Of a stretch of 43,091 nucleotides of DNA, positions 3,712-23,840 are shown one piece after another. Position 1 is the first letter of the stretch; every line of letters begins with the position of its first letter. The position numbers were made by a program, and so were the translations under genes. The stretch comes from Candidatus Micrarchaeota archaeon (GTDB lineage: Archaea > Micrarchaeota > Micrarchaeia > Anstonellales > Anstonellaceae). Where the stretch lies: contig JAKAME010000003.1 in NCBI GenBank assembly GCA_021813025.1, positions 1-43,091 of the forward strand, in the 5' to 3' direction. Below the pieces are notes generated by a model. The model was not told the DNA's origin and ran no database searches. It saw nothing but the letters and a program-made list of their open reading frames with translations.

Positions 3712-3712
3712 C

Positions 3713-5215: not shown

Positions 5216-5261
5216 AAGCCCCTTCCCCAAAAAAAGCAGTGGTTGAAACAATTTGGCTGGC

Positions 5262-5435
5262 ATGCAGAAAGGGCTCAAAACTCTGGCCGTCAAGGCGTCG
5301 GCTGTCGCGTTTCTGTCAGGCGCCGCCCTGTTTTATCCCTCAGTCTCAAAAGCCTTCCAGTACGAACCCCTGATAGACAGCCTGAATGGCGTGATTGTGC
5401 CCCAGAAGCAGATTCATCAAGTGAGGGAAACGTAG
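5262..5435 (+). CDS. Possible small membrane/secreted peptide (57 aa)
   Basis: An ATG at 5262 lies inside ORF 5253..5435. It has a hydrophobic N-terminal stretch, LAVKASAVAFLSGAALFY. There is no other support, so it could be non-coding. Confidence 0.2.
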   Translation: MQKGLKTLAVKASAVAFLSGAALFYPSVSKAFQYEPLIDSLNGVIVPQKQIHQVRET

Positions 5436-5484
5436 TTCCTGTTGCAACTGCTCCACCGGCTACGGTCCAGCAGGCCGGCGCGCG

Positions 5485-5508
5485 TTTGCCCTCTGGGGGC
5501 AAAAAAGC
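5485..5508 (-). terminator. Oligo-T / hairpin terminator at the end of the six-gene cluster
   Basis: Immediately after the TGA of the 590-aa gene, the minus strand reads GC-TTTTTTGCCC-CCAGA-GGGCAAA. This is a T6 run plus a 7-bp stem. Confidence 0.45.
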
Positions 5509-7281
5509 TCAGATGTAGTCGTAGCAGCCCAGAGAAGTGCCGCACTGCACTATGCCAACCGCGTGGTTGTTGACCTCATCGATTTCTGTGAGATGGTTGC
5601 CGAAGTCCGCGTCCATAGTGAATACTGCGAGGTGGGGGAACTCGCAGACGGCGGGGTAGGTCCGCTTCACATAGGATTGGGGCGGCTGGGGCAGGCCGTT
5701 GGCGTCCAGCGCGCCGGGGATGACTCCCATCGGCACAGGATAATAGCGGGCCGGGCTCCCGTCCAGCACCACAGAGGTGTTGGTGCCAAGCGGCGTGGGC
5801 CGCGTGCCGCTGTTCCAGGTGTAGACGTCCACGTTGAAGCTTGTTGGCGGCTTGGTAACCGGCACGGACGTGGCATTGGGGATGACCAGCGCGGCGAGGT
5901 CGTCCGCGTTGTTGAAGCACACCTGCACCGTGACGTTGGTCAGGCAGGGCTGCAGGTTGCACATCGGCTGCGCCGAGTGCAGGGAGATGCTGATGTCAAC
6001 GCAGCCCACATGGACTGTCAGCGGGTCTGGGGCTGTGAGGTTGACTACAAGAGTGGCGTTGCCCTGCGCAGGGATGATGTCGGGCGCGAAGCCGTTTGGA
6101 GCAGGGCCTTGGGTCGCGTTCCAGCCCGGTTCGGGCGCGCTGGCTATGCCGACCCCGTCTGCCACCATGTCAAAGACGCTGTCGGGGTTGGAGATTGTGA
6201 CGTTGAGCAGGTAGCTGGCCCCGTCGGTCGGCACTATGGTGCTCGGGTCCACGGTTGCGCTCACGCTGCATGTCTGCGGGTCCACCACTATGACGTTCCA
6301 GCTGGCCGCGGTCGTGTTCAGCGCGACGAGGGGGACTCCGTTGGTGTTGTCCCGGTATATGTTCTTCCAGTTCTGGGCGCTGTTGGCCACGTCTGGCCAG
6401 ATGTGGATGAAACCAAGGCATTGCTGCGAGCCCATCAGGGACTGGATGCTGTGGGTGCCCAAGGCCATGTTGCCTGTCACCCACGCGTCGCCGGTGGTCG
6501 GGTTGCAGCCGGGGGAGACGATGGGGCCGGGAGAGACTGCCCCGTCTGCCGGCCTTGTCATGGGATTGGAATCCAGCGTCACCCACTCCGAGCCGGAGCA
6601 TATCAGGCCGCTCTGGGCATTCTGGCCAGGATATTGCGGCGGCGGGGGCGGAACCTCCAAGATGGTGTAATAGTCGGATTTCGACTGGAGGTCGGTGCAT
6701 ATGAAGTTGTAATCCGCAGGCTGGGTTTGCTGGTTGACTATGCGGTTGACGCTGCCGCGCATCCGGGTTACGAAAGCGGGGTCGTTAATCCACTGCACCA
6801 GCCCGCCATTGTCCTGCCCCCAGCCGCAGGGCATGTTGCACTGGTTGCCGCACTGGTTGAGAAGGATGTTGGGGCACTGGCGGTTGACGTCTGGAGGCGG
6901 GGGCACGCCATAGTTGGCCGTGGCGCCGAAGCGCCCGTTGGCAAACGTCGAGCTTTGGTTGATGAGCACCCGCAGCTGGCCGGGGCACATGTAGACGCCG
7001 GTCCCGTTCGGGCCGGTTTGTGATGCGTCAAGGTCCTGGTCGTCTGTGATGTTGCGGGGAAAGTAGATGACTGCCGGCCCAGCGCCAGTGGTGTCATTGG
7101 CCAGGCGCATGCGGGCGCTGAGGCCTATGTCGGTGTTCATGTGCACGTTGGCTATGAGGTTTTGGATGAGGTCGATGTTGGATGATTTTGAAACCTCTTG
7201 GTAGGCCCACGCGCCGCTGGCAAGAAGCAGCAGGCTGCCAAGAAGAGGCAGCAGCATGGTCAAGTGGAACCGGTTTGTCAT
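5509..7281 (-). CDS. Secreted Cys-rich protein with CARDB-like C-terminal domain (cluster gene 6)
   Basis: The Sec-type signal peptide is MTNRFHLTMLLPLLGSLLLLASGAWA|YQ. Many Cys residues. The C-terminal ~116 aa end in FTMDADFGNHLTEIDEVNNH, the D..n.v.E.dE.NN signature typical of CARDB domains. Confidence 0.75.
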   Translation of the reverse strand: MTNRFHLTMLLPLLGSLLLLASGAWAYQEVSKSSNIDLIQNLIANVHMNTDIGLSARMRLANDTTGAGPAVIYFPRNITDDQDLDASQTGPNGTGVYMCPGQLRVLINQSSTFANGRFGATANYGVPPPPDVNRQCPNILLNQCGNQCNMPCGWGQDNGGLVQWINDPAFVTRMRGSVNRIVNQQTQPADYNFICTDLQSKSDYYTILEVPPPPPQYPGQNAQSGLICSGSEWVTLDSNPMTRPADGAVSPGPIVSPGCNPTTGDAWVTGNMALGTHSIQSLMGSQQCLGFIHIWPDVANSAQNWKNIYRDNTNGVPLVALNTTAASWNVIVVDPQTCSVSATVDPSTIVPTDGASYLLNVTISNPDSVFDMVADGVGIASAPEPGWNATQGPAPNGFAPDIIPAQGNATLVVNLTAPDPLTVHVGCVDISISLHSAQPMCNLQPCLTNVTVQVCFNNADDLAALVIPNATSVPVTKPPTSFNVDVYTWNSGTRPTPLGTNTSVVLDGSPARYYPVPMGVIPGALDANGLPQPPQSYVKRTYPAVCEFPHLAVFTMDADFGNHLTEIDEVNNHAVGIVQCGTSLGCYDYI

Positions 7282-7289
7282 GCATCCAC

Positions 7290-9455
7290 CTAGGGCGAGG
7301 GCGGCTGTTTTGGCTGGATTGTCGCGCTCCTGAACAGGTTCATGAACTCCTCAGGGTCTATGCGCAGGCCCAGCTTGGCTTCGGTGTGGGGCTGGCCTAT
7401 GATGTTCTGCCATGCGCCATACAGCTCGATGCCGCCGTACATTGCCCGAAGCTCGGGCTGGATGAAGACATTGCTTCGCGAGACGTCATAGCCGACCGAG
7501 ACAGCGGGTGAAATATAGTGGCCTTTCTCGTTCGCCTGCGAGCCTATCGGGATTAGCAGCCTGGGGACGAATATCAGGAGGTTGGATGGTATCTCCTGAG
7601 GCCGGTATTGCATCTGCAGGCCCACGTCTATGAGCGGCCTGACGTTGAAGAACTCGCCGCGCATGAACAGGGACTCGACGCCCTCCAGCGCCACTCTGGC
7701 GTTGGTGATGAGCCTGTCCTTGAAGCTGGGGGCGCGCACCATGAGGCTGTAGTCAAGGTTCAGGGTTTTGTTGTCCGCCGTCTGGAACAGCTTGAGTGGG
7801 TCGGAGTAGCCGGTGACCTGGTCGCGCTTGAAGACGCCAAGCTCGGCGCCCATCCGATAGTCGATTTGCGAATAGCTCAGGCCGGGGCGGACGAAGTGGC
7901 CGTAGCCGTTGAAGAATATGGCCGTGGCAAAGCGGAGGGTGTAGATGCCGGGATGGTCCAGCTTGTTATCGTTGATTTCGTACTCCACTTCCTGCCTGTC
8001 GTTGAGGAAGTATGTTGTTGACTTCTTCATGCGCTTGTATATCTCGGCGTTGAGGTCGAAATAGGCCGGGACCACCGAGCGCTCGCCATTGATGCCGCGG
8101 AGCAGCTCTTCGCTGAGTTTGGACGACACGTTGACGACGATGTCGAACTGGCCCAGCGGGCGGATGTTGGTTTTGTTTATGGTGACTTTTGGGATGTCGA
8201 GCCCGGCCGTGGAGTAGCGCATGGGGTTGGCTGGCGAGTTTCTCCAGATGGTGATGAAGTCAAGAAATGCCTGAAAATCCCCGTTCATGGCCCTGTCGTA
8301 GAGGGCCTTGGCTTGGGCAGCTGTCGAGCCGGCGAACCAGGAGTCGTCGCTGAAATAGGTGTCTGTGAGAAACGCCCTCGCGTCTTTCAGTGTGACCTTC
8401 ATCAGGTCGATGAATTCCTTGTCCGGGGTGTTGTTGCTCTGGCGGAATTCCTCGGCCAGAATGCGCGCGCCAAAAAGAAGGCCGAGGTATTTGCGGGCGT
8501 CGGTAAGATAATCTAGCTCGTTTGGGTATTTGGCATTGAGATAGCCGCTTGACCAGTCCATGTCCAGAAGGTTGCCCATCTGGTACTCCATGAACAGGCC
8601 CGAGACGTCAAGGCCTTGGTTTGAGAAGAGGGACGGGTATCTGATGCCTACCGTGCCCGGCCTCCAGTCCACAACGGCGGTCGGGTTGATTGGCACGTAT
8701 TTGGGTGCGCCCTCGGTTGAGACGACCGGCTCGGTGGGTTCGGCCCTCCTTGGCTCCTCCTTCCTTTCATCGGCCTGTGGAGCGGGGCTGACGAATGACG
8801 AGCGGCGGAGGCTGTGGGCGTTGATGTAGCTGTTCGCCTGCTCATACGCCCCTTGGTTGAGCTGGGACATCGTATAGGCGTCCAGGCCGACCTTGTTGTC
8901 TGACGCAAGCACGGCCCCGACATAATATGGCAGGCGCTTGTCCTCCGGCAGGCTGCGGGCGAAGGAGAGAAGGTCGTCCACGTCCCTCTGTATGAAGGTG
9001 CGCTGGACTTCGGGGGAATAAGCCCAGTTGAATATGTTGGTCAGCCGCTTGTTGCCCTCCTTTGACTCGTCAATCAGGTAGGTGCCCTCCGCCTTGAGGC
9101 TGGCGAGGGACTGGTCGAAAACGCCGTCAGCTTCGAGCCGCCTTTGCACGTACATGGCGGCTTGCGGGCTGCCCTCGCCCGCAAGTATGGCGGCCGCGCG
9201 CAGCTTGACCCTGTCCGCCTCGTCGAGGGTGCGGATTTCTGAGGCCTTGAGGATTTTGTCTATCTCCGCCATCACCCGCGAAGCGTTCTCCGGCCCGGCA
9301 TTGGCGAGGGTGTTGGCCACCACGAATGCGGCCATCGTCCTTTTGTTAGCGCTGGTTTTGGGGCTGGTGACCACTTTCATCTGCTTTTCATAGGTCTCGT
9401 TGAAGGGAGTCTGCACGGCCTGTATATTGCTTTGCAACACGAAGAACACCATCAT
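7290..9455 (-). CDS. Orphan 721-aa protein with beta-rich C-terminal module (cluster gene 5)
   Basis: Long ORF with balanced composition, starting 58 nt after gene 4 and ending 8 nt before gene 6. I recognised no family motif. The C-terminal ~200 aa show alternating hydrophobic/aromatic strands. Confidence 0.7.
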   Translation of the reverse strand: MMVFFVLQSNIQAVQTPFNETYEKQMKVVTSPKTSANKRTMAAFVVANTLANAGPENASRVMAEIDKILKASEIRTLDEADRVKLRAAAILAGEGSPQAAMYVQRRLEADGVFDQSLASLKAEGTYLIDESKEGNKRLTNIFNWAYSPEVQRTFIQRDVDDLLSFARSLPEDKRLPYYVGAVLASDNKVGLDAYTMSQLNQGAYEQANSYINAHSLRRSSFVSPAPQADERKEEPRRAEPTEPVVSTEGAPKYVPINPTAVVDWRPGTVGIRYPSLFSNQGLDVSGLFMEYQMGNLLDMDWSSGYLNAKYPNELDYLTDARKYLGLLFGARILAEEFRQSNNTPDKEFIDLMKVTLKDARAFLTDTYFSDDSWFAGSTAAQAKALYDRAMNGDFQAFLDFITIWRNSPANPMRYSTAGLDIPKVTINKTNIRPLGQFDIVVNVSSKLSEELLRGINGERSVVPAYFDLNAEIYKRMKKSTTYFLNDRQEVEYEINDNKLDHPGIYTLRFATAIFFNGYGHFVRPGLSYSQIDYRMGAELGVFKRDQVTGYSDPLKLFQTADNKTLNLDYSLMVRAPSFKDRLITNARVALEGVESLFMRGEFFNVRPLIDVGLQMQYRPQEIPSNLLIFVPRLLIPIGSQANEKGHYISPAVSVGYDVSRSNVFIQPELRAMYGGIELYGAWQNIIGQPHTEAKLGLRIDPEEFMNLFRSATIQPKQPPSP

Positions 9456-9493
9456 CCCCCCATGCGCATGTTCATGGATTCTACTCCTCGTCC

Positions 9494-9505
9494 TATATTA
9501 TTAAT
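9494..9505 (-). promoter_or_regulatory. Possible internal TATA box upstream of the 721-aa gene
   Basis: The minus strand reads ATTAATAATATA about 40-50 nt upstream of ATG 9455. It is the only AT-rich patch in the 58-nt spacer. Confidence 0.25.
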
Positions 9506-9513
9506 GTGATGGG

Positions 9514-11649
9514 TTACCTCCGCTTCCTGTCCTCCGCGAGGCGCTGGAGGTAATAGCCGCACAGGTCTGCCAGCCTGGAGCTCTCCGAGCCGGGCTGCGC
9601 GCGGTCGGGCGAGTCGGCGAGGATGGAACGGACGCTTCTGAAAAGGTATTCCGCATAATCCTGCTCCGAGCCGGTGTAGGTCCGCCCCTTCTTGTCCGCC
9701 ATCACAAGCTTGGCATTCTCTCCCCCAACGAAGTCGTCTTTGGCCTGCCCGCCGGCCATCATGCGGCTGTGGGCGTACTGGAACAGAGTGCCCAGAAGCC
9801 TTTCGGCCTCTGGCGTGAGCGGCCTGAGCGGCATCACTGGATAGATGGAAATCATTTCGCCCTCGCGCTTTAGCTGGAAGAGCCCGCGGCGCAGTTCGGA
9901 GCCTCTGCGGTCGAGGGCGTCAAAATCGCTGTCTGTGAGCGTGAGGTTGACTATGAATCGCCCTCCGGCCGCCTTGTTGTACTCGTCCCGGGCAGACCCG
10001 AACGAGGCGCTGTCAGGCTCGAATGAGAACAGCTTCTGCACGGGCTTGAGCAGGCTGCCCTCCGCCCCCAAGCGCGCGTCCAGCCCGCAGGAGGTGATGA
10101 CCGCCTGGCTGAGGAGAGCAAGGTCGCCGGCCAGGATGGAATATACCGCCGCCTGCGTCTGCTCGTCAAGATTTGCAAGGCCTATGAGCACCAGGCTCTT
10201 GACCACCTGCACGCTGCCCTCAGCCTTCGGGTTTGCCTCAAGCGAGCGGGCCAGAGTGAGTGCGGAGCGTTTCTTGTATTCTGCCTGCTGCTCCGTGCCT
10301 GCGTAGAAGTCGAGGCGGTCCAGCGAGCCGGCCGCATCCGCAGCATAGGAGGGCAGGCCGCTCAGGAAAGAAAGCGAATTCTCGACGCTGGTGCGCACGG
10401 TCGGGTAGAACTCCAGCGCGGAGCCGTCGCCCAAGGCACCCAGTATGGCAGGCAGGAGGCCGGAGTTGGCATTCAGCCATGCCTTGGCGCCTGCGGCATC
10501 CGCAGGCTTCACTCCTTCGGGCGGGACGGCAATTTTCCCGCTTGCTATTGAGGAATAGTAGGTGAATTCCTCCAAAGCCGCGGCAGCCATCTGCTGCAGC
10601 CCGCTCTTGATTATGTATTCGTCGGGACTGCCCTCTGCGCGGTCGGCAATTGACTGCAGGCGCTTGAGGAGGGCAGCCCTCTCAGTTGGGCAGCTGGAGG
10701 TGGCGCGGTATGCCAGCTTGAGGAAAGACTGCACGCGCTTCTCGCTTTCTGCAGCATCGGTGGTAAGCTCGCCGCTCGCCGCGTCCTTCTCCACCCGCTT
10801 GATTGGAATCGAGAACTTTCCCCCTTTTTCGGAAATTGCAGCCGTTAGTATGGAGCCTGCAAGCGCGCCGGCTTGCTCGGGGTTTTCCGAGCGCGAGGCG
10901 AGGTTGGAGAGGCGGAGGGCCGCGTCAAAGCGGGCGGAATAGGAGTCGGTTTGCCCTTCCGGCGGGCGGCCGCGCATGGAGGACAGCAGCGCGTCGGTGT
11001 CTATCTCGCTCACCTGCTCGCTGCCCTCCTCCCTGCCTGTGACCGGCTGGGGGATGGTCTTGGACAGAGCCTCCTTCTGCTCTGCTGTTGGCGGGCTTTC
11101 AGCCACATGCTGCAGTGGCTGCTCTTGGCGGCGCGCCACCAAATCAAGGTTGGTTTGCCAGGAATTCGAAGGCCCGCCCAGGCGCTCGAACTCCTTGCGC
11201 GCGCCGATGAGCAGCTCCCAGAAGGCCGAGGTGTCTGCGCCCGTGCTCCACTCGCTCACGTGCTTGAAGAAGGCGTCCTGCACTGCTGGATAGCCGTCGG
11301 CCACCTTGTAGGCTTCGTAGAGCATGGCGCCCAGCTGCTCGGGCTTGTTGCTCACGGCTACCCACTGGTTCCTTTTGGCGCTCTTGTAGAAGATGTTGTT
11401 GAGCACCCACTCCTCGACTTCCCCGGCAGCCTGAGCGCCGGCCTCGCCCTTGGGCCCTGCATGGCAGAGGCGGGCGGCCTCGCGTATGGCCTGCAGGCGG
11501 ATGTCTATGCTGCCCCCCCGCTTGAGGGCCTCGCTCACGGTCGTATGCTTTGGCTGGCCGTTGTCAAGCACGGTGAGCGGCGCGGACTTGACCGCGTCGC
11601 CCTGCGGGGGCGCGGGGCTCTCTTTTTTGACGTCCTGCCAAATCATCAT
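9514..11649 (-). CDS. Orphan 711-aa predominantly helical protein (cluster gene 4)
   Basis: Long ORF starting 11 nt after gene 3. A/L/E/S-rich with a helical character. No signal peptide, TM segment or catalytic motif recognised. Confidence 0.7.
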   Translation of the reverse strand: MMIWQDVKKESPAPPQGDAVKSAPLTVLDNGQPKHTTVSEALKRGGSIDIRLQAIREAARLCHAGPKGEAGAQAAGEVEEWVLNNIFYKSAKRNQWVAVSNKPEQLGAMLYEAYKVADGYPAVQDAFFKHVSEWSTGADTSAFWELLIGARKEFERLGGPSNSWQTNLDLVARRQEQPLQHVAESPPTAEQKEALSKTIPQPVTGREEGSEQVSEIDTDALLSSMRGRPPEGQTDSYSARFDAALRLSNLASRSENPEQAGALAGSILTAAISEKGGKFSIPIKRVEKDAASGELTTDAAESEKRVQSFLKLAYRATSSCPTERAALLKRLQSIADRAEGSPDEYIIKSGLQQMAAAALEEFTYYSSIASGKIAVPPEGVKPADAAGAKAWLNANSGLLPAILGALGDGSALEFYPTVRTSVENSLSFLSGLPSYAADAAGSLDRLDFYAGTEQQAEYKKRSALTLARSLEANPKAEGSVQVVKSLVLIGLANLDEQTQAAVYSILAGDLALLSQAVITSCGLDARLGAEGSLLKPVQKLFSFEPDSASFGSARDEYNKAAGGRFIVNLTLTDSDFDALDRRGSELRRGLFQLKREGEMISIYPVMPLRPLTPEAERLLGTLFQYAHSRMMAGGQAKDDFVGGENAKLVMADKKGRTYTGSEQDYAEYLFRSVRSILADSPDRAQPGSESSRLADLCGYYLQRLAEDRKRR

Positions 11650-11660
11650 GCACAGGCCCC

Positions 11661-14600
11661 CTATCCGTGCCGCGCGCGGCGGGGAACGAGCCTGCGGATG
11701 CCGCCGCCCCTCAGCTCGCCGCTGTCCTTCTTCTCCTCAGGCTTTGGCAGGGCGCCGATGGCCTCGAGGAACAGCTTGTAGCCGCCCTGGATGTTTCCGC
11801 CGGAGTCGAACTCCTGGATGGGCGCGCACATCCACCCGCCGTTCTCTTTGTACGCCCTATAAACGTCGACGTTTTTGACCGCGCCGGTGGCCTCGTCCTT
11901 GAGCTGGTAGGAGAGGATGAGCTTGGGGTCGGTTGCGGATGAGCCCGGGCCCTCGCGCACTGTCAGCGGAACGGTCTTGCCGGGCTTGCCGCCCTCGCCC
12001 TCTATCTGCACGTCCCAGGGCGTGATGTAGGAGAGGTAGGATTTGGCCTGCACGTCGGCCTTGGCCCACTCCTCGGCGTCCAGCGCCACGCCTATGAAGC
12101 CGTTTCCAGACCAGTTGAGCTTTATCGGAGGCGCGGCCCCGCCCGCGTCCAGGGTTACGGGGGTCACGAACATGTCTTTGAGTTTCCTGAAGGAAGCCTC
12201 CTCGCCGCTCATCACGCGCTGAATAAACTTCTCGTTGAAACGGTATTCGGTCGCTTCCGGGGCCGCCACCTCCTCATGGGTGGCTGGGTCGATTTTGGTG
12301 TGATAGGTGACAAAGGCGGCAGTCTGGCCAGCATAGATGAGCCGCTTCTCGAACCAGTGGCTGCCGTCCGCGAGCTTCCCATCGGCCCCTGCCTCGACTG
12401 CAACCGGCACCGGCCTGCCGCTGCTTGGGATTAGGCGGAAGGGGGAGTTGCCGTCCTTGTCTGTCACCGAGCCGGTCGCGTAGTCGACGACTTCGGAATA
12501 CATGCCGATGCCCATGACGCCCACGGGCATGTTTGAGGCCGGCAGCTCCTCCAGAAGCTGATAGCGCCGGAGGGTGTTTCCGCTGGCATCGGTATCCTCC
12601 ACCGGAATCACAAGGTTGCGCCGGAAAAACTCCGCAGGCACCTGCAAATCGCCCAGCTTCACCGTGAACACGCCGCGCGAGCCGGCCTCGAGCGGATTGG
12701 GCATGATGACGGCTTCGCTCTTCACGACAGGCTGGCCGTTCTCGCCGATGACCGGGCTGCCGTCAGGGTTTGTGACAGGCACGTTGACGGCCTTCACCAC
12801 TTGGGAGCGGAATGTCACCGTTCCGGCAGTGATGTATTGCGCGACTGGGCCGAAGTCCACATGGTCCCAATCCACGTCCTCGGGCGCGTGCTTGCGCACG
12901 GTAATCTTGTAGTCCTGAGGCGTGAAGCGGGTGACCGCAGTGCCTGCATTCGAGCGCTGCATCTCCTCGCTGATGTAATCCTTCGGGTCCACCCCTGCCT
13001 GTATCTTGAAAGAGCCGTCGGCCTTGCCGTATTGGTAATAGTAGTAGGCGTAATACTTGTCCTCGGCGCCGGTGGTGACGCTGAAGGTGTAGACGCGCTC
13101 TATTTTGGGGTTGGTGCCCTCCACGCCAGCCTGCGGCTCCCGGTCGATGCCCACTATGCTTTCGGTGCGGTTGGCCTGGGCCGGCAGCCCCGGCATGCCG
13201 ATGGGGCCGTCAATATCCTGTATGAATTCGCCGTTGTCGCTGCGGAAGAGGAGGCCCTTGAGAGTGCCGATTGGGGCGCTTGAATCTGCCGGGGCCGACA
13301 CCGGCACGCCCGGCGTGATGAGGTCCTGGTCTTCCTTGCCCCCGGACATGAGCGTGACGGTGACGTCCACGACCGCCTTGTCGGTGTTGGCTACGTGCTC
13401 CTTGAGAGGCTCCACATGCACTTTCAGCCGGGTGGGCACGTCTGAGCCGGTGCCGGTGAAACGGATGTTTTTGAGGTTGAGGTACCAGCTGGCCGGATGG
13501 TCGGGGTCCTCGAAATCCCTGTTGCTTTTGTCCGGCTTGCGCCGGTCAATCCAGTCCATGTAGGCCATGCGTTTTTCAAACGAGTCGTCGAGCCTGTATT
13601 TGCCGCCCTCTGATGCGAGGATGCTGTTGAGCAGGTTCTGCGCCTCGTCATAGAATTTGCCCGGCCCCCGGCGCGCGGCCTCCGCTTCGATGGCCTTGGC
13701 CATGGAGTCCATCATGTCCGGGTCCATGACAGCCAGATAGTCCACCCCGTCGGCCAGATAGTTCTCAATCTCCGGGCGCTGGGGCGCGGTCTTGACTCCG
13801 AAGTAGAAGAGGTTCGTGTCCAGATTCCGATTGGCGTCCACCATGTCCGCATACCAGTTTCTTTTTATGAGCTCAGGGCTGGGCGGCGGCTCGTGGGATG
13901 CCGAGCCTGACGCGAACTCCTTGGACTTCGTGTCCATGAGGATATCGTGGATGAGATTGGCCCATGGCTCGTTGCTACTGCCCCCCTTGGAGACGTCGGA
14001 GAATATTGGCTCCAGCACGAACGCGCGGATGATGTTCTTGGACTGCAGGGCGAGGTTGTGGTTGAACCAGGCCGTGAGCTTGGCCCCCAGCCCGTCGAGG
14101 CGCTTGGAATGGTCGTTGAGCCAGTCGGAGGGGATTGCGAGAGTGCATTCCTTCTCCGGCACGTCTGAGCCGCCAGTTCCGTAGGCCGAGATGCCGTATT
14201 TGGAGCGAGTCTTGGCCGGAAGATTGACCCTCAAGTCATCGAACAGATACTCCCCGTCCTTGTTCTTCATGTTCACCAGATAGGCCTTGATTTGGGAGCG
14301 GGAAAGCAGGTCCCATGCGTTCCCGATGGGGCGGAAACGGCCGCCTGCCATGCCCTTGGCCTCGGAGCGCAGGGCGTCGCGGGCCGTGATGCTGGCGGTT
14401 TTGAGCGCGTCGCGCTTTGCAGCCAGTTCGGCCTTCTGCGAGTCTGTGACCGTTCCGCCCTGCTGCGCTATCTGGCCTTCCAGAGCGTCAAGCTCGACGC
14501 CGGCCGTATAGAGCGCGAATATGGCCGGTTTCGCGGCCGCGGGCAGGAAACCCAGCATTTTGTCAATCTCGTCATCCGGCCGGTTGTCCTTCTTGCCCAA

Positions 14601-15140
14601 GGCCACCATGTCGAGGCCCAGGGTGATGATGCCCTGCAGTATGATGACGTCGGGTATGGCCACCCAGTCGGCGCGATACTCGCGCTCCAAATCTGCGTAA
14701 TGCTCCAGCGCGCGCTGGTTGGAATAGGATTCTGAAAGCGGCTCCTTGAGCACGGCCGCCTGCGCGTCCGGGGCGTACTCGCTGCTCTTGATGAAGTTTC
14801 CGGGGCTTGCTATGAACTGGTCCTCAAGGGCCTGCCCCACCTGCTGGAACAGGCTCTGGCGCCGGCCCTTGGTCTGGCGCGCGGCATCGGCATAGCGGGC
14901 GGCCGGGCCGTCGCCCAGAGAGGCCTTGAGCCATGAGCGGAAATCCTCCAGCCTCGTCTCGTCGAGCTTGTCGGTGATTTCCCGAACGCTTGGGATTGTG
15001 CCGCCGCTCACATAATCCTGCACTATGGCCACGAGGCGGTTTCTGAAGAATTCCTCGAGTTTTTTCGTTGCCTCGCCCTGGCTGACAAAGATGGACTTGC
15101 TGGCGACACCCTCGTCTTTCTGCAACAACATAAGCACCAT
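11661..15140 (-). CDS. Orphan 1159-aa protein (cluster gene 3)
   Basis: 3.5-kb ORF with GGGGTGAG immediately upstream of ATG 15140. The N-half is helical and the C-half is beta-rich (for example YYAYYYYQYGKADGSFKIQAG). Basic C-terminal tail. No known motif recognised. Confidence 0.75.
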   Translation of the reverse strand: MVLMLLQKDEGVASKSIFVSQGEATKKLEEFFRNRLVAIVQDYVSGGTIPSVREITDKLDETRLEDFRSWLKASLGDGPAARYADAARQTKGRRQSLFQQVGQALEDQFIASPGNFIKSSEYAPDAQAAVLKEPLSESYSNQRALEHYADLEREYRADWVAIPDVIILQGIITLGLDMVALGKKDNRPDDEIDKMLGFLPAAAKPAIFALYTAGVELDALEGQIAQQGGTVTDSQKAELAAKRDALKTASITARDALRSEAKGMAGGRFRPIGNAWDLLSRSQIKAYLVNMKNKDGEYLFDDLRVNLPAKTRSKYGISAYGTGGSDVPEKECTLAIPSDWLNDHSKRLDGLGAKLTAWFNHNLALQSKNIIRAFVLEPIFSDVSKGGSSNEPWANLIHDILMDTKSKEFASGSASHEPPPSPELIKRNWYADMVDANRNLDTNLFYFGVKTAPQRPEIENYLADGVDYLAVMDPDMMDSMAKAIEAEAARRGPGKFYDEAQNLLNSILASEGGKYRLDDSFEKRMAYMDWIDRRKPDKSNRDFEDPDHPASWYLNLKNIRFTGTGSDVPTRLKVHVEPLKEHVANTDKAVVDVTVTLMSGGKEDQDLITPGVPVSAPADSSAPIGTLKGLLFRSDNGEFIQDIDGPIGMPGLPAQANRTESIVGIDREPQAGVEGTNPKIERVYTFSVTTGAEDKYYAYYYYQYGKADGSFKIQAGVDPKDYISEEMQRSNAGTAVTRFTPQDYKITVRKHAPEDVDWDHVDFGPVAQYITAGTVTFRSQVVKAVNVPVTNPDGSPVIGENGQPVVKSEAVIMPNPLEAGSRGVFTVKLGDLQVPAEFFRRNLVIPVEDTDASGNTLRRYQLLEELPASNMPVGVMGIGMYSEVVDYATGSVTDKDGNSPFRLIPSSGRPVPVAVEAGADGKLADGSHWFEKRLIYAGQTAAFVTYHTKIDPATHEEVAAPEATEYRFNEKFIQRVMSGEEASFRKLKDMFVTPVTLDAGGAAPPIKLNWSGNGFIGVALDAEEWAKADVQAKSYLSYITPWDVQIEGEGGKPGKTVPLTVREGPGSSATDPKLILSYQLKDEATGAVKNVDVYRAYKENGGWMCAPIQEFDSGGNIQGGYKLFLEAIGALPKPEEKKDSGELRGGGIRRLVPRRARHG

Positions 15141-15205
15141 CTCACCCCTGCAACATGCATTGGTTTTCCATGATTATAATACCCCGCCACGGCCATTCAA
15201 GCGCG

Positions 15206-18200
15206 CTATTTCTTCGCAGGCCCCTTCTTTTCCTCAGGCTCAAGCGGCACTGCCTCCTCCGGCTCCTCTTCCTCCTTTTTGGGAGCCTGCTTTTGCGGAG
15301 CTTCCTTTTTCGGCTCGGTTTTGGCAGGAGGCGGCGTGACTTTCTTGGGCGTGGCCTTCTTCGGAGTCACCTCTCCGGCATCGGGTGTGCCGGTAGTTGG
15401 AGTCTCGGTGCCGATTGTAGTCTTGATGCTGGTTGGAGTGGTGGTGCCGGGCGTCTCGGTTTTCATCGGCTCGATTGGCTTGGGAGAAGGCGCGGGGTTC
15501 TGCTCCACGCGCGCCTTGTCAAGGTCAAGGTATTTCTGGCGCGCTGCGTTCGGGTCGCCGAACTTCTCCCACTGAAGCGGGCTGTAGCGGGTGTCTGTGT
15601 TGGGAAGATAGGTCCTGGTCTCCCCACTGGGCGTTTTCGTTTCGTAAGGCCCGCCGAACACGTAGGTGAATTGCAGCCTGACCCCAAAGTTTGACACCTG
15701 CCCCCAGTCAAGCTTGGAGAACATGTAGTCCACCGAAGCGCCGAGGCGGGCGTTGGGGCCTATTGGAGTGTAGGTCTGCAGTTGGGTGCGCAGGGTGGGG
15801 TTGAGGGTGCCCATGCCCGTGCCTGCATATCCTGCCTCCACGCTGAACTGGGTGTTGGTGCCGGGCAGCACCGAGCCGGAGTAGAGGCGGGCGAACAGGG
15901 TGGCCTCGCTCAGCTGCACTGCCGTGGCATTGGCTGAGAGGCTGGCCCCGAAGTCGCCGGCCAAATCCGCGAGGATGGGCACCGTGCGGCTGGCCATTAG
16001 GCGGAAGGGGATTGGAGGTATCCAGTTGCGGGTGATTTGGGGCATGTCGTTTATGGCATAGCTGACTGCGCGGTCCTTGTTGAACAGCTCGAACGCGGCC
16101 GTGTAGGGGGCGGAGGGAATGAAGATTGAGCCGACTATATCCAAGTCAACGCCAGTGCCGTTTGGGAACAGGCCAAGTAGGCGGGTGTCCTTCTCCTTGA
16201 ACCTCCAGTCAACCCTTATGTTGCCGAAAGGCATGATGTTCCTGCCGCCGATGAAGAGGCTGTCGATGCTCTGGTAGGTGCCAAGGCCGTTGCCATACAT
16301 GCCGCTCTCAAGGAAGGTGCCGGAGCCCTGCCCGCCAGAATACATCTGGGTGGAGAGATGCTCTGACATGAGCCTGAGCGCGTTGGCGCAATTGCCCGTG
16401 GCGCTGGTGGCATCTGCATTCGGGTTGTAGGGGTCTGAGTAGGTGATTATGAGGTCGGCGATGTCGCGGCCGGCCTTGTCGTTTGCAAGCAGCTTGTCCT
16501 TGAGCGCCTTGGCCGCCGCATTGATGGTCTGCGCGTTCTTCTGGCCGACAGGCGCTGACCACTGGGTGGCGAGCGGGGTCCAGGCGTTCCAGACCTCGCT
16601 GTTGTATTTGTAGTCGTAGGGGTTGCGGGTCCAGAACAGGCCCACTTCGGCCACGAAGTCCATGTTGAAGATTGAGCGGTCGCCCTCGTATTTGTAGAGG
16701 TTGAACTGCTCGTTGATTACGAACATGGAGGCGTTCACAAGCTTGGTGGTGAGCGGGAAGTTTGGATTGTAAATCGACTGGCCCAAGCCTGCCACGTCGC
16801 CGAGGGCCGGGCAGAAGGTCACCATCAGGCGGTTTTGGGGGTTGAAGGAGAATATGGCAGTGATGCCGTGCTGCCGCGCCGACTCGCCTATGCCGGCGAG
16901 CATGTCCATGGTCACGCCCCAGGCAGCCACTCCCCGCACAATGGTCGGATAGATTTCATTCGCAGGCTTTGATATGGTGAACCCGCGGGCCTCGTCTATC
17001 TTGTCGTCGAGCAGGGCGAGGGTTTTGGCGTCGGCCGGGTCGATGAGGTTGCGGGCCTGAATCAGCCAGCCCTTCCACAGCTGTCTTTCTGTGATGATTG
17101 CGCCCAAGGGGTCGAACTCGCGGATTTTGGAGATGGAGTCGAGGAAATCGTATGGCTTGTCTTTTAGAACCGGGTCCTGAGGCAGCTGGTCGGCAAGGCC
17201 GGGAGTGAAGAGCGCCTTGACTATGGAGTCCTTGTTCTGGTCGTGGATGTTTTGCAAGGTCGCGAGGTCGAATCCTGCCAGGTAATTGCTGCCGCCAACC
17301 GTCTTGGCGCCGAAGGCGTCGAACATGGGCTGATTCAGCAATCCGCTGCCAGCGAAGCGGTAGGCGTTGTACTGCCTGTCGCTCCAATAGGTGGCGCGCC
17401 GGGCATTTACGTAGTCCGAGAGCGGGCTGTAGCCAAGATTGGAGAACATGTCCACATAGCCGCCCGCGCTCTCGTTGCGCTGGCCGAAGAGCCCCTCTTT
17501 GCCTGAGTTGGCGTCGCCCCCGCCCTTGAGGATGTTCTTGGTGTAGCCGTAAGTGGGCACGCTGGTGAGCCCGGCCATGAGGCCGAGGCGGAATGGCGAG
17601 GGCTGGGGCAGGATGCGATTGTGCGTTTCAAATTCGGCCAGGGGCAGCCAGGCCTTCATCTCATACACTACAAGAGGCTTGCCGCCCGGGCCAATCATGT
17701 CGGGGATGCGGATTGCCTTGCGCAACTCCTTCACTTCATCGTGCGTCTTGACCTCATACGGGTTGCGGATTTCGACTATGTATTCGTGCGTCCCGTCGCC
17801 GCGGTCCACCACCTTGACGTCGGGCTGCACTGTGATGTTGTCGATTGGCTCGAAGCGGCCCGTGGGGGCGTTCCACACGCTGTTGGCCTGCATGGCCAGC
17901 TCCGCCAGCCGCTTTGAGAAGGCCGGGCCGTATTCCTTGCAGGCCGAGTCGCTGCGCACTATGACGTGCCAGAACACGCGCGCGTAGCCCTCGTCAAGCT
18001 CGTATGGAGTCCCGTCAGGTTTTGTGCCAACGCCCATTTTTGGCCTTGACTGGCTGGCGTCCACGTTGTGCTCCACGTTGAGCACGGGCCGATTGGAGGG
18101 CACGAACACAGTGCCGCGGCCGGTGTAGTCCATTGCCAGGTTGAAGGCCAGATAGCCGGCAACGTTCTGGACCGCAATCCAGCCCTCGCCCCCGTAAGCC

Positions 18201-19666
18201 TTGCCAGCCGTTTCCGGCGGCTCGCCTTCGGGGTGGCGGATTTCGCAGTTTTGGGCGATGGCGTATTTGAGCTTGAAATCAAAGAAGGCCTTGGCGGCAG
18301 CCGGCGAGTTTGAGGCTATCTGGCCCTTTACCGCCAGCAGCTCGCTCTGCGCGCGCTGGATGGAGGAGATGGCGTCCGGGCCGAGGATAATGGCGGAATG
18401 GCGCAGGACTTCTTCCTTCAGTTTTGCCTTGGCCTCAGCCACGTCGGCTTGCGCCTGCAGCTTGTTGGTCTTGGCCTTGTCTGCGATTGCTTTCTTTTTG
18501 TCCAAGTCATCGGAGAGCGAGCGGATGATGGCGAGAGGGCCGGCCGCGTCCGGCAGGGAGGAATCGCCCCCTCTTTTCTGGGCCGCCGACTCCACGGCCA
18601 GGCGCGCCTCCACTATGCTCTTGAGAGTCTCGAAAGAGTAGGCTTGGGGGCTGATGGAAGGGGCGAAGACCTCCTCGGCTACAACCATGTGGGCGTCAAT
18701 CTGGTCGCAGAGGAGCCTGCGGCCCTCCTCGCTGCCCATCATGCGGGAATCGTAGTATAGAGAGAGCGAGTAAGGCGCGCCCAGCTTGTTGCCTGTGTAC
18801 TCGCCGTTCTGCCAGCCCAGCTCGATGTTCTCGCTGCGCACCTTCTCTGCCGCTTTTTTCCAGTCTTTTTTGTATTCGCTGGGAGTGATGGAGGCGCCGG
18901 AATCGTCGGCAAAGCCGATGACGCGTCCGCCCTTGGCGTTCACGCCCAGGTTGCCTGCGAGAAGGCTTTTTTGCGCGCCGTCGAGGCCGGCTTTCACGCC
19001 TGCCAGCTCCGGGCCGTCGGAGGCTTTGCTGAAGGCGTTGCCCTCGAAAAACTCCTTGACCAGCGGGGCGGTCTTGTTGATTAGCCCGCTCTCGCCCTTG
19101 AGGCCTTCCGCCTTCTGCTCCATGAAGAGCGTGAGCCCGTCGGTGAGGATGCGGATGGACTGCTCGTCATCCACCACCGCCCATGCCGCCTGGGGAAAGA
19201 GCGCGGGCAGGATTCTGTGCAGCACGTCCGCCGACTCGTCCAGCTGGACCTGGTGCTCGTTGGTGAGCTGGTAGGTTGTGGCTATGGTGCGGGAAAACCA
19301 CAGCGGCTGGGCGCGCTGGCTTATGTCAAGCTGGCCGGCCGCGTCATAGCGGAAGATGTCGAAGTAGACTGGCTGGTTGGCGGGCTCGCCTTTGGCGTTG
19401 GTGTAGGCGGTGCCCTCTGAGTCCTGGCTGAAGAGGGGGCTGCTCTCGAATGGCTTTGGGTCTTTTTTCTTCTGGCCTTCCGGGATGGTTGCCGGCACGG
19501 TCCTGTGCTGGTCGACAAGAATGCCGCCGCCCCGCTTGAGCGACTCGATCTGCGCGCGCTGGTCATCAATCTGCTGCTTGGTGTTGTTGGCAGCTTCAAT
19601 CGCCTGGGAGGAAACCCTCTTTTCCTGGGTTTTCTGGGCTGGAGGCATAGCGACGACCGTTACCAC
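15206..19666 (-). CDS. Orphan 1486-aa protein with coiled-coil N-half, OMP-like beta-rich C-module and K/P/T/E-rich tail (cluster gene 2)
   Basis: 4.5-kb ORF. The start is GTG 19666 or ATG 19648, with a TATA-like CTTTTAAG at 19679-19688 on the minus strand. It contains the coiled-coil stretch KKKAIADKAKTNKLQAQADVAEAKAKLKEE. The beta-rich module ends in NFGVRLQFTYVF and is followed by a low-complexity tail. Confidence 0.75.
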   Translation of the reverse strand: MVTVVAMPPAQKTQEKRVSSQAIEAANNTKQQIDDQRAQIESLKRGGGILVDQHRTVPATIPEGQKKKDPKPFESSPLFSQDSEGTAYTNAKGEPANQPVYFDIFRYDAAGQLDISQRAQPLWFSRTIATTYQLTNEHQVQLDESADVLHRILPALFPQAAWAVVDDEQSIRILTDGLTLFMEQKAEGLKGESGLINKTAPLVKEFFEGNAFSKASDGPELAGVKAGLDGAQKSLLAGNLGVNAKGGRVIGFADDSGASITPSEYKKDWKKAAEKVRSENIELGWQNGEYTGNKLGAPYSLSLYYDSRMMGSEEGRRLLCDQIDAHMVVAEEVFAPSISPQAYSFETLKSIVEARLAVESAAQKRGGDSSLPDAAGPLAIIRSLSDDLDKKKAIADKAKTNKLQAQADVAEAKAKLKEEVLRHSAIILGPDAISSIQRAQSELLAVKGQIASNSPAAAKAFFDFKLKYAIAQNCEIRHPEGEPPETAGKAYGGEGWIAVQNVAGYLAFNLAMDYTGRGTVFVPSNRPVLNVEHNVDASQSRPKMGVGTKPDGTPYELDEGYARVFWHVIVRSDSACKEYGPAFSKRLAELAMQANSVWNAPTGRFEPIDNITVQPDVKVVDRGDGTHEYIVEIRNPYEVKTHDEVKELRKAIRIPDMIGPGGKPLVVYEMKAWLPLAEFETHNRILPQPSPFRLGLMAGLTSVPTYGYTKNILKGGGDANSGKEGLFGQRNESAGGYVDMFSNLGYSPLSDYVNARRATYWSDRQYNAYRFAGSGLLNQPMFDAFGAKTVGGSNYLAGFDLATLQNIHDQNKDSIVKALFTPGLADQLPQDPVLKDKPYDFLDSISKIREFDPLGAIITERQLWKGWLIQARNLIDPADAKTLALLDDKIDEARGFTISKPANEIYPTIVRGVAAWGVTMDMLAGIGESARQHGITAIFSFNPQNRLMVTFCPALGDVAGLGQSIYNPNFPLTTKLVNASMFVINEQFNLYKYEGDRSIFNMDFVAEVGLFWTRNPYDYKYNSEVWNAWTPLATQWSAPVGQKNAQTINAAAKALKDKLLANDKAGRDIADLIITYSDPYNPNADATSATGNCANALRLMSEHLSTQMYSGGQGSGTFLESGMYGNGLGTYQSIDSLFIGGRNIMPFGNIRVDWRFKEKDTRLLGLFPNGTGVDLDIVGSIFIPSAPYTAAFELFNKDRAVSYAINDMPQITRNWIPPIPFRLMASRTVPILADLAGDFGASLSANATAVQLSEATLFARLYSGSVLPGTNTQFSVEAGYAGTGMGTLNPTLRTQLQTYTPIGPNARLGASVDYMFSKLDWGQVSNFGVRLQFTYVFGGPYETKTPSGETRTYLPNTDTRYSPLQWEKFGDPNAARQKYLDLDKARVEQNPAPSPKPIEPMKTETPGTTTPTSIKTTIGTETPTTGTPDAGEVTPKKATPKKVTPPPAKTEPKKEAPQKQAPKKEEEEPEEAVPLEPEEKKGPAKK

Positions 19667-19759
19667 TGATTCGTGAGAGCTTAAAAGTCTTCAGCAAAAC
19701 CTCCGCGCAGGCTGGCGGGATTGCGCTCTACGGGGTTTTCTGCCCCGAATTTTGAGGGC

Positions 19760-21076
19760 CTATTTCACAAGCAGGCGGAACGCCGCGCCGGCCTTTTCGC
19801 CGCTGTCCCCGGCGATTTTGACGAAGCGGACCGGGTCCTGCGCGAAGAGCTGGTTTGTGCGCGGCTGGCAGAGGGCGTCGAAGGCGTCCCACGCATACCC
19901 GCCGCTGGCTTGGGCGATTTTCACGCACGCGTCGATGTTGCTGGCGAAGAGCTGCCTTGTGCCGGTATGGGAGAGGCTGTTGAAGGCCAGATAGGCGTAT
20001 ATGCCGCTTGCCTGCGAGATTTTCACGAAGGCGTCGATGTTCTGGGCGACGAACTCGGGGCTGAAGTTGGAGAGGGCGTAGAATGCGTCTGGGGCGTAGT
20101 GGCCGGTCGCCTGGGCGATTTTCACGCACGCGTCGGCGTTTTGGGCGAAAAGTTCCGGAACCGCGATGTTGATGGCGCGGAAGGTTTCGTGGGCATACTC
20201 GCCGCTCGCCTGCGAGATTTTCACGCACGCGTCTGGGTTCTGGACTATGAGCTTTGCGACGCTGGGGCGGGCGATGTCACCGAAGGTGAGATAGACGTTT
20301 CCGCCCGATGCGTGGGCTATTTTCACGAACGCGTCCACTACCTGCCAGGGGTTCTGGGCAAGGAGCTCGGAGAGGCAGGGGTCGGAGAGGGTGTTGAAGG
20401 CCAGATAGGCGTACTGGCCGGTAGCCTGGGAAAGCTTCACGCACCCGTCAAGGGTCTGGATGAGGAAGCGCGAGTCGAGGTTGGAGAGGGAAGAGAAGGC
20501 CCAGGAAGTGCCGCTGCCGCTTGCCTGCGAGATTTTCACGAACGCATCGAGGCTTTGGATGAAGAGCTTCTTGATTTCCTGCGTGTGGAGCGGGCGGAGG
20601 GCCCAGTAGGGATGATGCTCTCCCATGGCAGCCGTGATTTTGCCGACTGCGTCGCCTATGCGCCCGACATATGCGGGCGCGTCGCCCGACGCGAGAATTA
20701 TCTGGGCCATCTCGTCGGTGCAGAAGCCGCGGATTGTGACCGCGTTCACGTCGTGCTTTATCTTGCGGATGGTGAGGCGCATGTCCTCGGTCGCGGCGCT
20801 GTCTGGAAGAGAGGTCGGACTCGCTTCCGCAGTATTCTGCCCGTCCGGCAGGGTGGCTGGTTTCGTTCCGGCCGGGCTCGGCTGTTCCGGCATGGCCGGC
20901 GGCTTCGTCATGGTCGAGTCCTGCTGCGTTGCCGGAACATCTGATTTGGCTCCTGTCTCGTTCTGCCGCCCGGGCTGTGAATATGAGCGTACAATCGGAA
21001 TCTTGTCCTGCGCTTTGAGAAGGGAGATGCCTTCGGCGATGGGGGTGAAGAGCTGGGCTATGGACGAGACCGCCAC
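19760..21076 (-). CDS. Tandem-repeat protein with disordered P/T/S-rich N-terminus plus 8-9 x 33-38-aa repeats (cluster gene 1)
   Basis: GTG start at 21076. The repeat unit is D-A-[CF]-V-K-I-[SA]-Q-A-[ST]-G-x-Y-A-x-x-A-F-x-x-L-S...[AV]-Q-N. Units begin at aa 177, 210, 248, 282, 315, 348, 382 and 415. Confidence 0.7.
   Translation of the reverse strand: MAVSSIAQLFTPIAEGISLLKAQDKIPIVRSYSQPGRQNETGAKSDVPATQQDSTMTKPPAMPEQPSPAGTKPATLPDGQNTAEASPTSLPDSAATEDMRLTIRKIKHDVNAVTIRGFCTDEMAQIILASGDAPAYVGRIGDAVGKITAAMGEHHPYWALRPLHTQEIKKLFIQSLDAFVKISQASGSGTSWAFSSLSNLDSRFLIQTLDGCVKLSQATGQYAYLAFNTLSDPCLSELLAQNPWQVVDAFVKIAHASGGNVYLTFGDIARPSVAKLIVQNPDACVKISQASGEYAHETFRAINIAVPELFAQNADACVKIAQATGHYAPDAFYALSNFSPEFVAQNIDAFVKISQASGIYAYLAFNSLSHTGTRQLFASNIDACVKIAQASGGYAWDAFDALCQPRTNQLFAQDPVRFVKIAGDSGEKAGAAFRLLVK
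19763..20548 (-). repeat. Coding tandem repeat, period ~99-114 nt
   Basis: GA(T/G)TTTCACG(C/A)A(C/G)GCGTC-like cores recur on the plus strand near 19917, 20010, 20115, 20216, 20320, 20435 and 20530. They also generate the repetitive shadow ORF 19721..20944. Confidence 0.7.
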
Positions 21077-21154
21077 AAAATAGGAGACTGCACGAATGGT
21101 GCGGAACTTGCTGAATGTCTCCTTTGGTTTGAAAGATTTCAGCCAATCACCTAT

Positions 21155-21209
21155 AGCTCGCTAGACGAGCGAGTTAGTAATTTTATATGGATATTGTGGT
21201 ATAAAAAGC
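21155..21209 (-). promoter_or_regulatory. AT-rich spacer with two TATA-like boxes and a hairpin between pgk and the cluster
   Basis: The minus strand carries GCTTTTTATACC (21198-21209) and CCATATAAAATTA (21178-21190). These are followed by the hairpin CTCGCT-AGACG-AGCGAG (21155-21175), about 80 nt upstream of GTG 21076. Confidence 0.35.
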
Positions 21210-21244
21210 TATGTGATGGGAAGCGCACAGGCTGGCGCGGGGGT

Positions 21245-23740: not shown

Positions 23741-23840
23741 GTTTCCGGTGCTTTGGAATAACTCCCCGCTCGCAGGTTTATTAAATCCGCTCCGAGTAAG
23801 CCGCGAAGAGGGAAGCCGCCCATACTGCGAGGTGAATTTC

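Follow-up and report, generated by a model that had tools for sequence, protein, structure and literature searches.

Little is known of the cell biology of DPANN archaea, which are abundant and for the most part uncultured. Cryo-electron tomography has revealed contact filaments, a remodelled surface and an internal tubular body in Micrarchaeota, and we know of no genes that have been assigned to any of them. The SPEARE giant proteins of Nanohaloarchaeota, reportedly described by Hamm et al. in 2019, are said to be lineage-restricted DPANN giants proposed to mediate interaction with other cells; each is reportedly the product of one gene, runs to several thousand residues and contains protease, adhesion and nuclease domains that can be recognised. 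Also comparable are the strain-specific CARDB-fused surface proteins of 'Ca. Mancarchaeum acidiphilum' Mia14, a member of Micrarchaeota, for which a role in cell-cell interaction was proposed; they are secreted by Sec, have recognisable PKD and beta-propeller folds, and many of them were laterally acquired (Golyshina et al. 2017, PMC5498576). Cryo-electron tomography of a cultured Micrarchaeon has shown uncharacterised filaments and surface remodelling at contact sites (PMC8975820). Here, we analysed a 43,091-nt stretch of a Candidatus Micrarchaeota archaeon (contig JAKAME010000003.1; the whole stretch is called the window), in which six large minus-strand open reading frames (ORFs), numbered g1 to g6 from the side of the phosphoglycerate kinase gene pgk, lie head to tail. 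An earlier sequence-only reading of this DNA had proposed that the six genes encode an envelope or host-contact apparatus, and had correctly guessed a DPANN host. We found g2-g6 again, closely spaced and adjacent to pgk, in six further Micrarchaeota contigs, whose GC content ranges from 36% to 61%. We tentatively read them, with a probability of roughly 0.35, as subunits of a fast-diverging, non-enzymatic, multi-protein structural assembly at the cell envelope that is specific to a subset of Micrarchaeota.

The six related loci (L020-L025) are the contigs of g3 relatives, and their neighbouring genes were compared by phmmer, blastp and hhalign. In L020 (GC 36%) pgk is followed by g2, g3, g4, g5 and g6, and in L022 (GC 50%) by g2, g3 and g4, after which the contig ends. 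The order in L024 (GC 58.5%) is pgk, g3, g4, g2, a gene for a 315-aa protein, a g5-like gene and g6; L023 and L025 (GC 61%) have the same gene set, with the g5-like/g6 pair inverted and located beside g3. In L021, which comes from the genome LFW-29, the contig ends after pgk and g3. Two gene orders are thus seen across the loci, the set stays together through the rearrangement, and g6 is retained in the cluster in every complete locus. Homologs of g2 were detected with E-values of 1e-59 to 1e-109 (1e-79 to 1e-109 in L020, L022, L023 and L024), and those of g3 with E-values of 1e-11 to 1e-19. For g4 the values were 3e-34 (L022) and 4e-12 (L020), and its family was linked by hhalign to the 750- and 777-aa proteins of L024 and L023 with a probability of 96%; for g6 they were 1e-41 (L020) and 7e-20 (L023). 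The protein encoded by g5 matched a 602-aa protein at the same position in L020 (blastp E = 6e-10), and its link to the 603- and 627-aa proteins of L023 and L024 is weak and only suggestive (hhalign E = 6e-4, probability 29%). No counterpart of g1 was found in L020-L025 by phmmer or hhalign, and g1 is present in identical form in L002. The conserved unit is the five genes g2-g6, and g1 is specific to this lineage. The sequence-only reading had expected all six genes to co-occur in related genomes; this was borne out for g2-g6, and g1 has to be taken out of the set. The five genes have been passed on vertically and keep one position on the chromosome, beside pgk and GAPDH.

In all loci the genes are closely spaced, in places with start and stop codons overlapping by 1 or 4 nt, and Shine-Dalgarno-like GGTG or GGGG motifs precede most of the cluster genes. 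The ORFs are intact at 600-1600 aa in all seven loci, and the homologs are annotated at NCBI as hypothetical proteins of Candidatus Micrarchaeota. The GC content of the cluster (window positions 5001-21000) is 0.59-0.66, versus 0.52-0.58 in the flanking housekeeping region, with a positive GC skew throughout; the ORFs are no chance product of a high GC content, since homologs of g2, g3, g4 and g6 occur in genomes of 36-61% GC. The allele of the window was identical on seven contigs from several samples. We found no paralogy among the six proteins. At about 15 kb, the cluster takes up roughly 1% of a genome of ~1.3 Mb.

The cluster diverges much faster than its surroundings. The window also encodes a family B DNA polymerase (PolB), Pus10, SRP54 and an A24 prepilin peptidase, which mark the host as an archaeon, and the identity between the window and LFW-29 was 90% for SRP54, 84% for GAPDH, 82% for A24, 81% for Pus10, 78% for PolB and 68% for PGK, whereas g3 reached 25% in an alignment of only 266 residues, and the order of the genes was different as well. 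LFW-29 is a member of 'Ca. Anstonellaceae' (order Anstonellales, lineage LFWA-III), a group of groundwater Micrarchaeota that was called anabolically rich and putatively free-living when it was described (PMC8561730). The g3 of the window is no closer to that of LFW-29 than to that of the 36%-GC genome, and the SRP54 of the window is 54-82% identical to SRP54 of Micrarchaeota metagenome-assembled genomes other than LFW-29. Fast divergence together with rearrangement is typical of loci under biotic selection.

The families are also rare. In an exhaustive HMMER search of 1.84 billion representative proteins, the g3 family had only seven members: g3 itself, one protein 53% identical to it and five that were 25-36% identical. 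No close relative of g3 was found among GTDB species representatives. In JGI metagenomes the g2 alignment gave no match and the protein P0012 matched only the query itself; IMG/VR contained no related locus, and tblastn against 50,697 phage records gave no match. A word-index homolog search was empty for g2, which is not evidence of absence and is probably explained in part by the 172-aa fragment that represents the 90%-identity cluster with g2 (P0013/P0014).

None of the six proteins matched a family at threshold in Pfam, NCBIfam, PHROGs or PADLOC, with only a weak CARDB match in g6, and PADLOC, which covers known anti-phage defence, gave zero matches even at E <= 1. Sequence searches of the PDB returned no match for any of the six, profile searches of the PDB with the g2, g3 and g5 families returned none either, and no Pfam family is on record for the cluster homologs in the related loci. 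Walker A and HExxH motifs were absent from all six proteins, and no long clean hydrophobic segment was seen outside g6. In these respects the sequence-only reading, which had reported no such motif, no convincing transmembrane helix and almost no recognisable family, was right; it had further proposed that confident remote homology to known families would speak against it, and our sequence and profile searches were empty, as was Foldseek on low-confidence models. The literature that we searched contained no description of the cluster. Judged by sequence, apart from the CARDB domain no component appears to resemble anything known, and the cluster may be categorically new in kind, fold-level comparison being prevented by poor alignments.

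Of all components, only g6 can be assigned to the outside of the cell with confidence. All three members of its family have a Sec-type signal and 17-41 cysteines, their content of Lys, Arg and Glu is 4.6-7% versus 15-25% in cytoplasmic controls, and g6 of the window has 12 N-glycosylation sequons (z = +2.4). The CARDB domain (PF07705) was matched in the window copy with E = 0.025 (15.2 bits), in P0020 with E = 1.4e-4 (22.4 bits) and in the L023 homolog with E = 5.2e-5 (23.8 bits, above the gathering score of 22.7). The domain is C-terminal in all three members and is therefore recognised at the level of the family, while the match in the window copy is sub-threshold. The picture of g6 as the only product with a Sec signal, Cys-rich and CARDB-like, had already been drawn from the sequence, and the homologs strengthen its CARDB part.

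The g2-g5 families have in common a short N-terminal feature that the sequence-only reading had not mentioned and that we call the tag: Met and 4-6 strongly hydrophobic residues, followed by a polar stretch, as in MVLMLLQK, MMVFFVLQ, MLVFQINK, MFAFLLRQ, MVLFLLMR and MLFLLFSE. A mean hydropathy above 2 at residues 2-6 was found in 10 of 19 cluster proteins versus 1 of 50 neighbours (Mann-Whitney p = 3e-4). The tag is too short for a signal peptide or a transmembrane anchor. Because four non-homologous families share it, it may serve as a common targeting or docking signal.

The second shared feature is at the other end of the proteins. Members of the g2 and g5 families finish with a series of strands of 10-12 residues in which hydrophobic residues alternate, the last strand being rich in aromatic residues, and this pattern is kept in all members despite ~25% identity; in the meander of g2, the hydrophobic/polar alternation is kept in all five family members. 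We found no paralogy between the g2 and g5 modules. The ending of g2 had been likened to that of outer-membrane proteins (OMPs), and this sequence pattern is indeed visible in g2 and g5, but it was not confirmed as a beta-barrel. The g5-like protein P0015 had a sub-threshold end-to-end match to OMP_b-brl (E = 0.007-0.016, 15.8-16.9 bits versus a cutoff of 28.7); the other eight C-terminal modules had no OMP_b-brl match, and the g2 family had no match to any Pfam OMP family.

Behind its beta strands, g2 has a low-complexity tail, which is present in the window, L020 and L022 and absent from L023 and L024. In the latter two loci (21166-22131 and 16067-17014, respectively), as well as in L025 (14107-15072), the g2 homolog is followed by a separate gene for a basic protein of 315-321 aa with a disordered centre rich in Pro, Ser and Thr, and the g2 homologs of L023 and L024 are tailless. 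This gene and the tailless g2 in the second gene-order group may reflect fission or fusion of the g2 tail. We also considered the 315/321-aa protein as a replacement of g1, for which there was no sequence support. The g3 proteins keep a C-terminal 'hydrophobic-P-x-R' peptide.

AlphaFold2 was run for g3 with 7 sequences and for residues 210-1409 of g2 with 6 sequences, and the confidence was low for both (predicted local distance difference test, pLDDT, of 46.8 and 45.3, respectively). Foldseek against the PDB found nothing with E < 0.01 or a TM-score above 0.1 for either model; the top entries included GFP, OmpA and OmpF (low-confidence g2 model), all with E >= 0.018 and a TM-score below 0.1. 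Owing to the low confidence we assigned no fold and used only the trend in secondary structure. As a trend, g3 is predicted to be helical in its N-terminal half and beta in its C-terminal half, and g2 is predicted to begin with long helices, which would give way to mixed regions and then to a five-strand C-terminal meander.

Taken as an envelope assembly, the five proteins could fit together as follows. The protein g6 would be exported by Sec and would form, via its CARDB domain, an exposed adhesive part; the amphipathic beta-strand modules of g2 and g5 would be inserted in a membrane or surface layer or lie against it; g3 and g4 would be large helical and beta scaffolds; and the shared tag would bring the signal-less giants g2-g5 into one assembly. 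A structural role of the cluster is plausible, and in this the sequence-only reading stands; the envelope part of its proposal is possible only. Our inferences concern co-assembly, its site, what the tag does and whether the assembly mediates adhesion or contact. Since export signals, transmembrane helices and an enrichment in sequons are missing from four of the five core proteins, the location at the envelope can only be inferred, mainly from g6, the fast divergence and the amphipathic beta C-termini, with the shared tag as a further point in favour.

Several observations weigh against this location. In g2-g5 neither a Sec, Tat or class III signal nor a transmembrane helix is present, the number of sequons is neutral (z = -1.8 to +1.6), and the charge composition is intermediate and close to that of cytoplasmic controls. 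No ATPase, translocon or membrane protein was found in the cluster by motif scan, or among the neighbours in the related loci by Pfam. The OMP match was below threshold and seen in only one of nine modules, both AlphaFold2 models were of low confidence, and Foldseek was empty. In addition, the lineage of LFW-29, which is the closest relative with a name, was described as putatively free-living (PMC8561730); the suggestion of an episymbiont's host-attachment complex found no specific support.

The data agree about equally well with an assembly inside the cell. According to this alternative, which we consider possible but doubtful, g2-g5 would build an internal structure, such as a cytoskeleton-like scaffold or the 'tubular organelle' of ARMAN cells, and g6 would be an unrelated neighbour or an external partner. 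The absence of export signals and transmembrane helices from g2-g5 fits it, as do their neutral sequon frequency and near-cytoplasmic charge content, and their predicted long helices and large beta domains, in which no catalytic motif was found, would suit a scaffold; a tubular organelle of unknown composition was reported in ARMAN cells from cryo-electron tomography (PMC6098224). However, g6 is clearly secreted and yet kept in every complete locus, and ~25% identity between close relatives together with a change of gene order is unusual for internal structural proteins. The organelle, moreover, was seen in ARMAN from acid mines, whereas the cluster was found only in a few Micrarchaeota lineages of neutral water, and the g3 family has only 7 representatives.

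The envelope reading can be taken further, to a new archaeal envelope machine of the lineage LFWA-III with giants recruited by the tag, a beta-barrel-like pore or anchor and a CARDB adhesin as its cap, or, in a variant, to an internal tubular organelle. We hold this extended version to be rather unlikely. If it were true, the barrel-like modules would be an archaeal counterpart of bacterial outer-membrane beta-barrels, and the cap would serve contact with cells or particles. Ties of the envelope reading to the filaments and surface remodelling at Micrarchaeon-host contacts, and of the intracellular one to the tubular organelle, are speculative, because these were seen in acidophilic lineages.

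The giants might also be exported polymorphic effectors or adhesins directed against hosts, competitors or viruses, with the tag as a non-classical secretion signal. Very fast divergence, variable gene order, the common tag, a Lys-rich tail gained or lost between groups and an adjacent adhesin-like CARDB protein would all agree with such a role, but we consider it unlikely: none of the libraries searched gave a toxin, protease, nuclease or immunity-like domain, the four families are kept as a single-copy set and not as variable cassettes, and no cognate secretion machinery was identified. That the genes are mere neighbours with unrelated functions, or fast-decaying ORFs under low constraint with little function, seems to us quite improbable. 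Extreme divergence, the lack of a known function and internal TATA-like boxes, which suggest that separate promoters are possible, could be cited for it; on the other hand, the ORFs are intact at their full size in seven loci, the set survives rearrangement, the overlaps of start and stop codons and the Shine-Dalgarno-like motifs are conserved, four families carry the tag, and the window allele is identical on 7 contigs from several samples. A domesticated or resident structural module of a mobile element or virus is very improbable, despite the orphan proteins, the slightly raised local GC content and the accessory flanks in the window (tnpB and HEPN/MNT cassettes), for the position next to pgk and GAPDH is the same across genomes of 36-61% GC, hallmark genes such as those for an integrase, terminase or capsid are lacking, PHROGs, IMG/VR and the phage records gave no match, and none of the other loci has those flanks. 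The cluster is unlikely to be of viral or mobile origin, and a defence function is unlikely as well.

The coordinates of the cluster and its features are given in Table 1. The six ORFs, with a total of 5105 aa and about 36% of the window, were present where the sequence-only reading had placed them, with the lengths and the gaps (93, 65, 11, 58 and 8 nt from g1 to g6) that it had given, and both of the boundaries it had named, the TATA-bearing spacer after pgk and the T6/hairpin element after g6, can be seen in the sequence. Gene callers start g2 at an ATG 6 codons downstream, which gives 1480 aa. The TATA-like box in the spacer between pgk and g1 may act as a promoter, and the T6 run with its short GC hairpin is a plausible terminator. 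Similar boxes upstream of g2 and g3 may leave room for more than one promoter in the cluster, so that a single transcript is not established; the gaps of 8-93 nt, the Shine-Dalgarno-like motifs and the conserved overlaps in other loci would favour coupled transcription. In g1, where 8-9 tandem repeats of 33-38 aa had been counted, we found 8 units, with anchor motifs at aa 179, 212, 250, 284, 317, 350, 384 and 418.

Table 1. Positions of the g1-g6 genes and their sequence features in the 43,091-nt window.
Feature	Positions	Strand	Description	Basis
g1	19760-21076	-	438 aa; P/T-rich N-terminal region, then helical-type tandem repeats	
g2	15206-19666	-	1486 aa; core protein with the strongest conservation	
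g3	11661-15140	-	1159 aa; helical N-terminal half, beta-rich C-terminal half (predicted)	
g4	9514-11649	-	711 aa; Ala/Leu/Glu-rich, probably helical	
g5	7290-9455	-	721 aa; beta-rich C-terminal module with amphipathic strands at the end	
g6	5509-7281	-	590 aa; secreted, Cys-rich (17 Cys), charge-poor; CARDB-like domain C-terminal	
pgk-g1 spacer	21077-21244	-	TATA-like AT-rich box at ~21196-21203; sequence AGCTTTTTATACCACAATATCCATATAAAATTAC	
TATA-like box before g2	19680-19687	-	CTTTTAAG; upstream of g2, similar to the g3 box	
TATA-like box before g3	15173-15180	-	ATTATAAT; ~40 nt upstream of g3; possible internal promoter	
Terminator candidate	5485-5508	-	T6 run and GCCC-N5-GGGC hairpin 3' of the g6 stop: TGA GCTTTTTT GCCCCCAGAGGGC	
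g1 repeat array	19763-20608	-	8 units of 33-38 aa, motif LFAQNxDACVKIAQASGxYAxxAF	
g2 N-terminal tag	19646-19666	-	MVTVVAM	Hydropathy comparison
g3 N-terminal tag	15120-15140	-	MVLMLLQ	Hydropathy comparison
g5 N-terminal tag	9432-9455	-	MMVFFVLQ	Hydropathy comparison
g2 beta meander	15656-15907	-	aa 1254-1337; five predicted strands of ~11 residues, hydrophobic/polar alternation, end ...VRLQFTYVFGG	AlphaFold2 model, DSSP; pLDDT 30-46
g2 low-complexity tail	15209-15469	-	Lys/Pro/Thr/Glu; TPKK-type motifs and conserved terminal LExEE+K peptide	
g6 Sec-type signal peptide	7204-7281	-	aa 1-26; cleavage predicted between ...ASGAWA and YQ	Hydropathy and sequence
g6 CARDB-like domain	5563-5889	-	aa 465-573	Pfam PF07705

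The flanks of the cluster differ between the loci. Two nucleotidyltransferase/HEPN (MNT/HepT-type) toxin-antitoxin-like pairs are located directly downstream of g6 (window 3268-4237 and L001 15185-17132), and beyond them the minus strand of the window (1358-3076) encodes a 572-aa protein with a Por_Secre_tail domain, the C-terminal sorting domain of the type IX secretion system (T9SS), matched with E = 5.6e-13 in this archaeal genome. We found no Por_Secre_tail protein near the cluster in the related loci, and the HEPN/MNT pairs are absent from them as well; the idea that the apparatus could serve neighbouring cargo with a C-terminal sorting tag is therefore unsupported. In L020 (17123-19767) and L023 (2003-4853), that is in genomes of 36% and 61% GC, the same four genes lie beyond the g6 end of the cluster: they encode a 218/222-aa protein (E = 1e-71 between L020 and L023, with a weak CEPT76_peptidase match), bPH_2, Rpb6 and a GHMP kinase. 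None of the four is in the window, where the HEPN/MNT cassettes occupy that side; we dropped the peptidase-like 218/222-aa neighbour as a member of the system for this reason. On the other side, a TnpB gene with OrfB_IS605 and Cas12f1-like TNB domains (22561-23823, minus strand) lies between pgk and GAPDH, and as the two are adjacent with no tnpB in LFW-29 (L021) and L024, we regard tnpB as a recent insertion. The GAPDH ORF (23748-24845) overlaps the 5' end of tnpB and can be aligned to its relatives only from residue 26-32 onwards, so its real start is probably downstream. Further away, a full-length Rfam tRNA match spans 159 nt on the minus strand (33988-34146), which points to an intron, and ARAGORN found no tRNA in the window; a 768-aa ORF on the plus strand (39557-41863) has a Sec-like signal peptide (MRTGLLSFLFLLLLFAPAFAAA...) and no Pfam match, and is probably a secreted orphan.

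The cost of ~15 kb, the intactness of the genes across 36-61% GC and their fast evolution together point to a structure that is costly, defines the lineage and is strongly selected. The cluster offers a small and concrete candidate gene set for structures of Micrarchaeota, and its N-terminal tag and beta-strand C-termini are two sequence features that can be tested. If the tag were an export or assembly signal, it would represent a new protein-targeting route in archaea; if the products were only fast-evolving scaffold proteins, the locus would still be a useful marker for the clade.

The comparison with described systems sets the cluster apart from each of them. Type IV pili, the archaellum and systems similar to type IV secretion would require a P-loop ATPase and subunits with class III signal peptides; the six proteins have no Walker A motif, and Pfam gave no ATPase or pilin match in the window cluster or the related loci. 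No T9SS component was matched among the cluster proteins in Pfam or NCBIfam, and the likeness to that system is limited to the Por_Secre_tail protein 2.4 kb from g6, in this window only. Unlike the SPEARE proteins, the products described here come from five distinct genes, and no catalytic domain can be recognised in them. The Micrarchaeota S-layer protein SLP_Mh (Gfrerer et al., bioRxiv 10.1101/2021.04.28.441871) is an envelope structural protein from the same phylum, glycosylated and poorly conserved in sequence, which makes it similar; it differs by its S-layer domains (PF05123, TIGR01564/01567) and by an N-terminal signal or transmembrane segment. The models PF05123 and TIGR01564/TIGR01567 matched neither the six proteins (E <= 1) nor ten homologs, and of the core proteins only g6 has the N-terminal signal peptide or membrane anchor expected of an archaeal S-layer protein, g2-g5 having none. 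The likeness to OMP_b-brl (PF13505) lies in the terminal strands of g2 and g5 and in P0015, which aligned with the C-terminal half of the profile; unlike OMPs, the g2 and g5 families have no signal peptide, no machinery resembling the bacterial beta-barrel assembly (BAM) system was found, the modules are appendages of proteins of 600-1500 aa, and the archaeal host is thought, by analogy with 'Ca. Micrarchaeum harzensis', to have one membrane and an S-layer. In contrast to the CARDB-fused proteins of Mia14, only g6 is secreted and carries CARDB here, and g2-g5, with no known domain or signal, belong to a vertically inherited set; what the two have in common is the CARDB module of g6 and the picture of large surface proteins to which a tiny genome devotes a notable share of its length.

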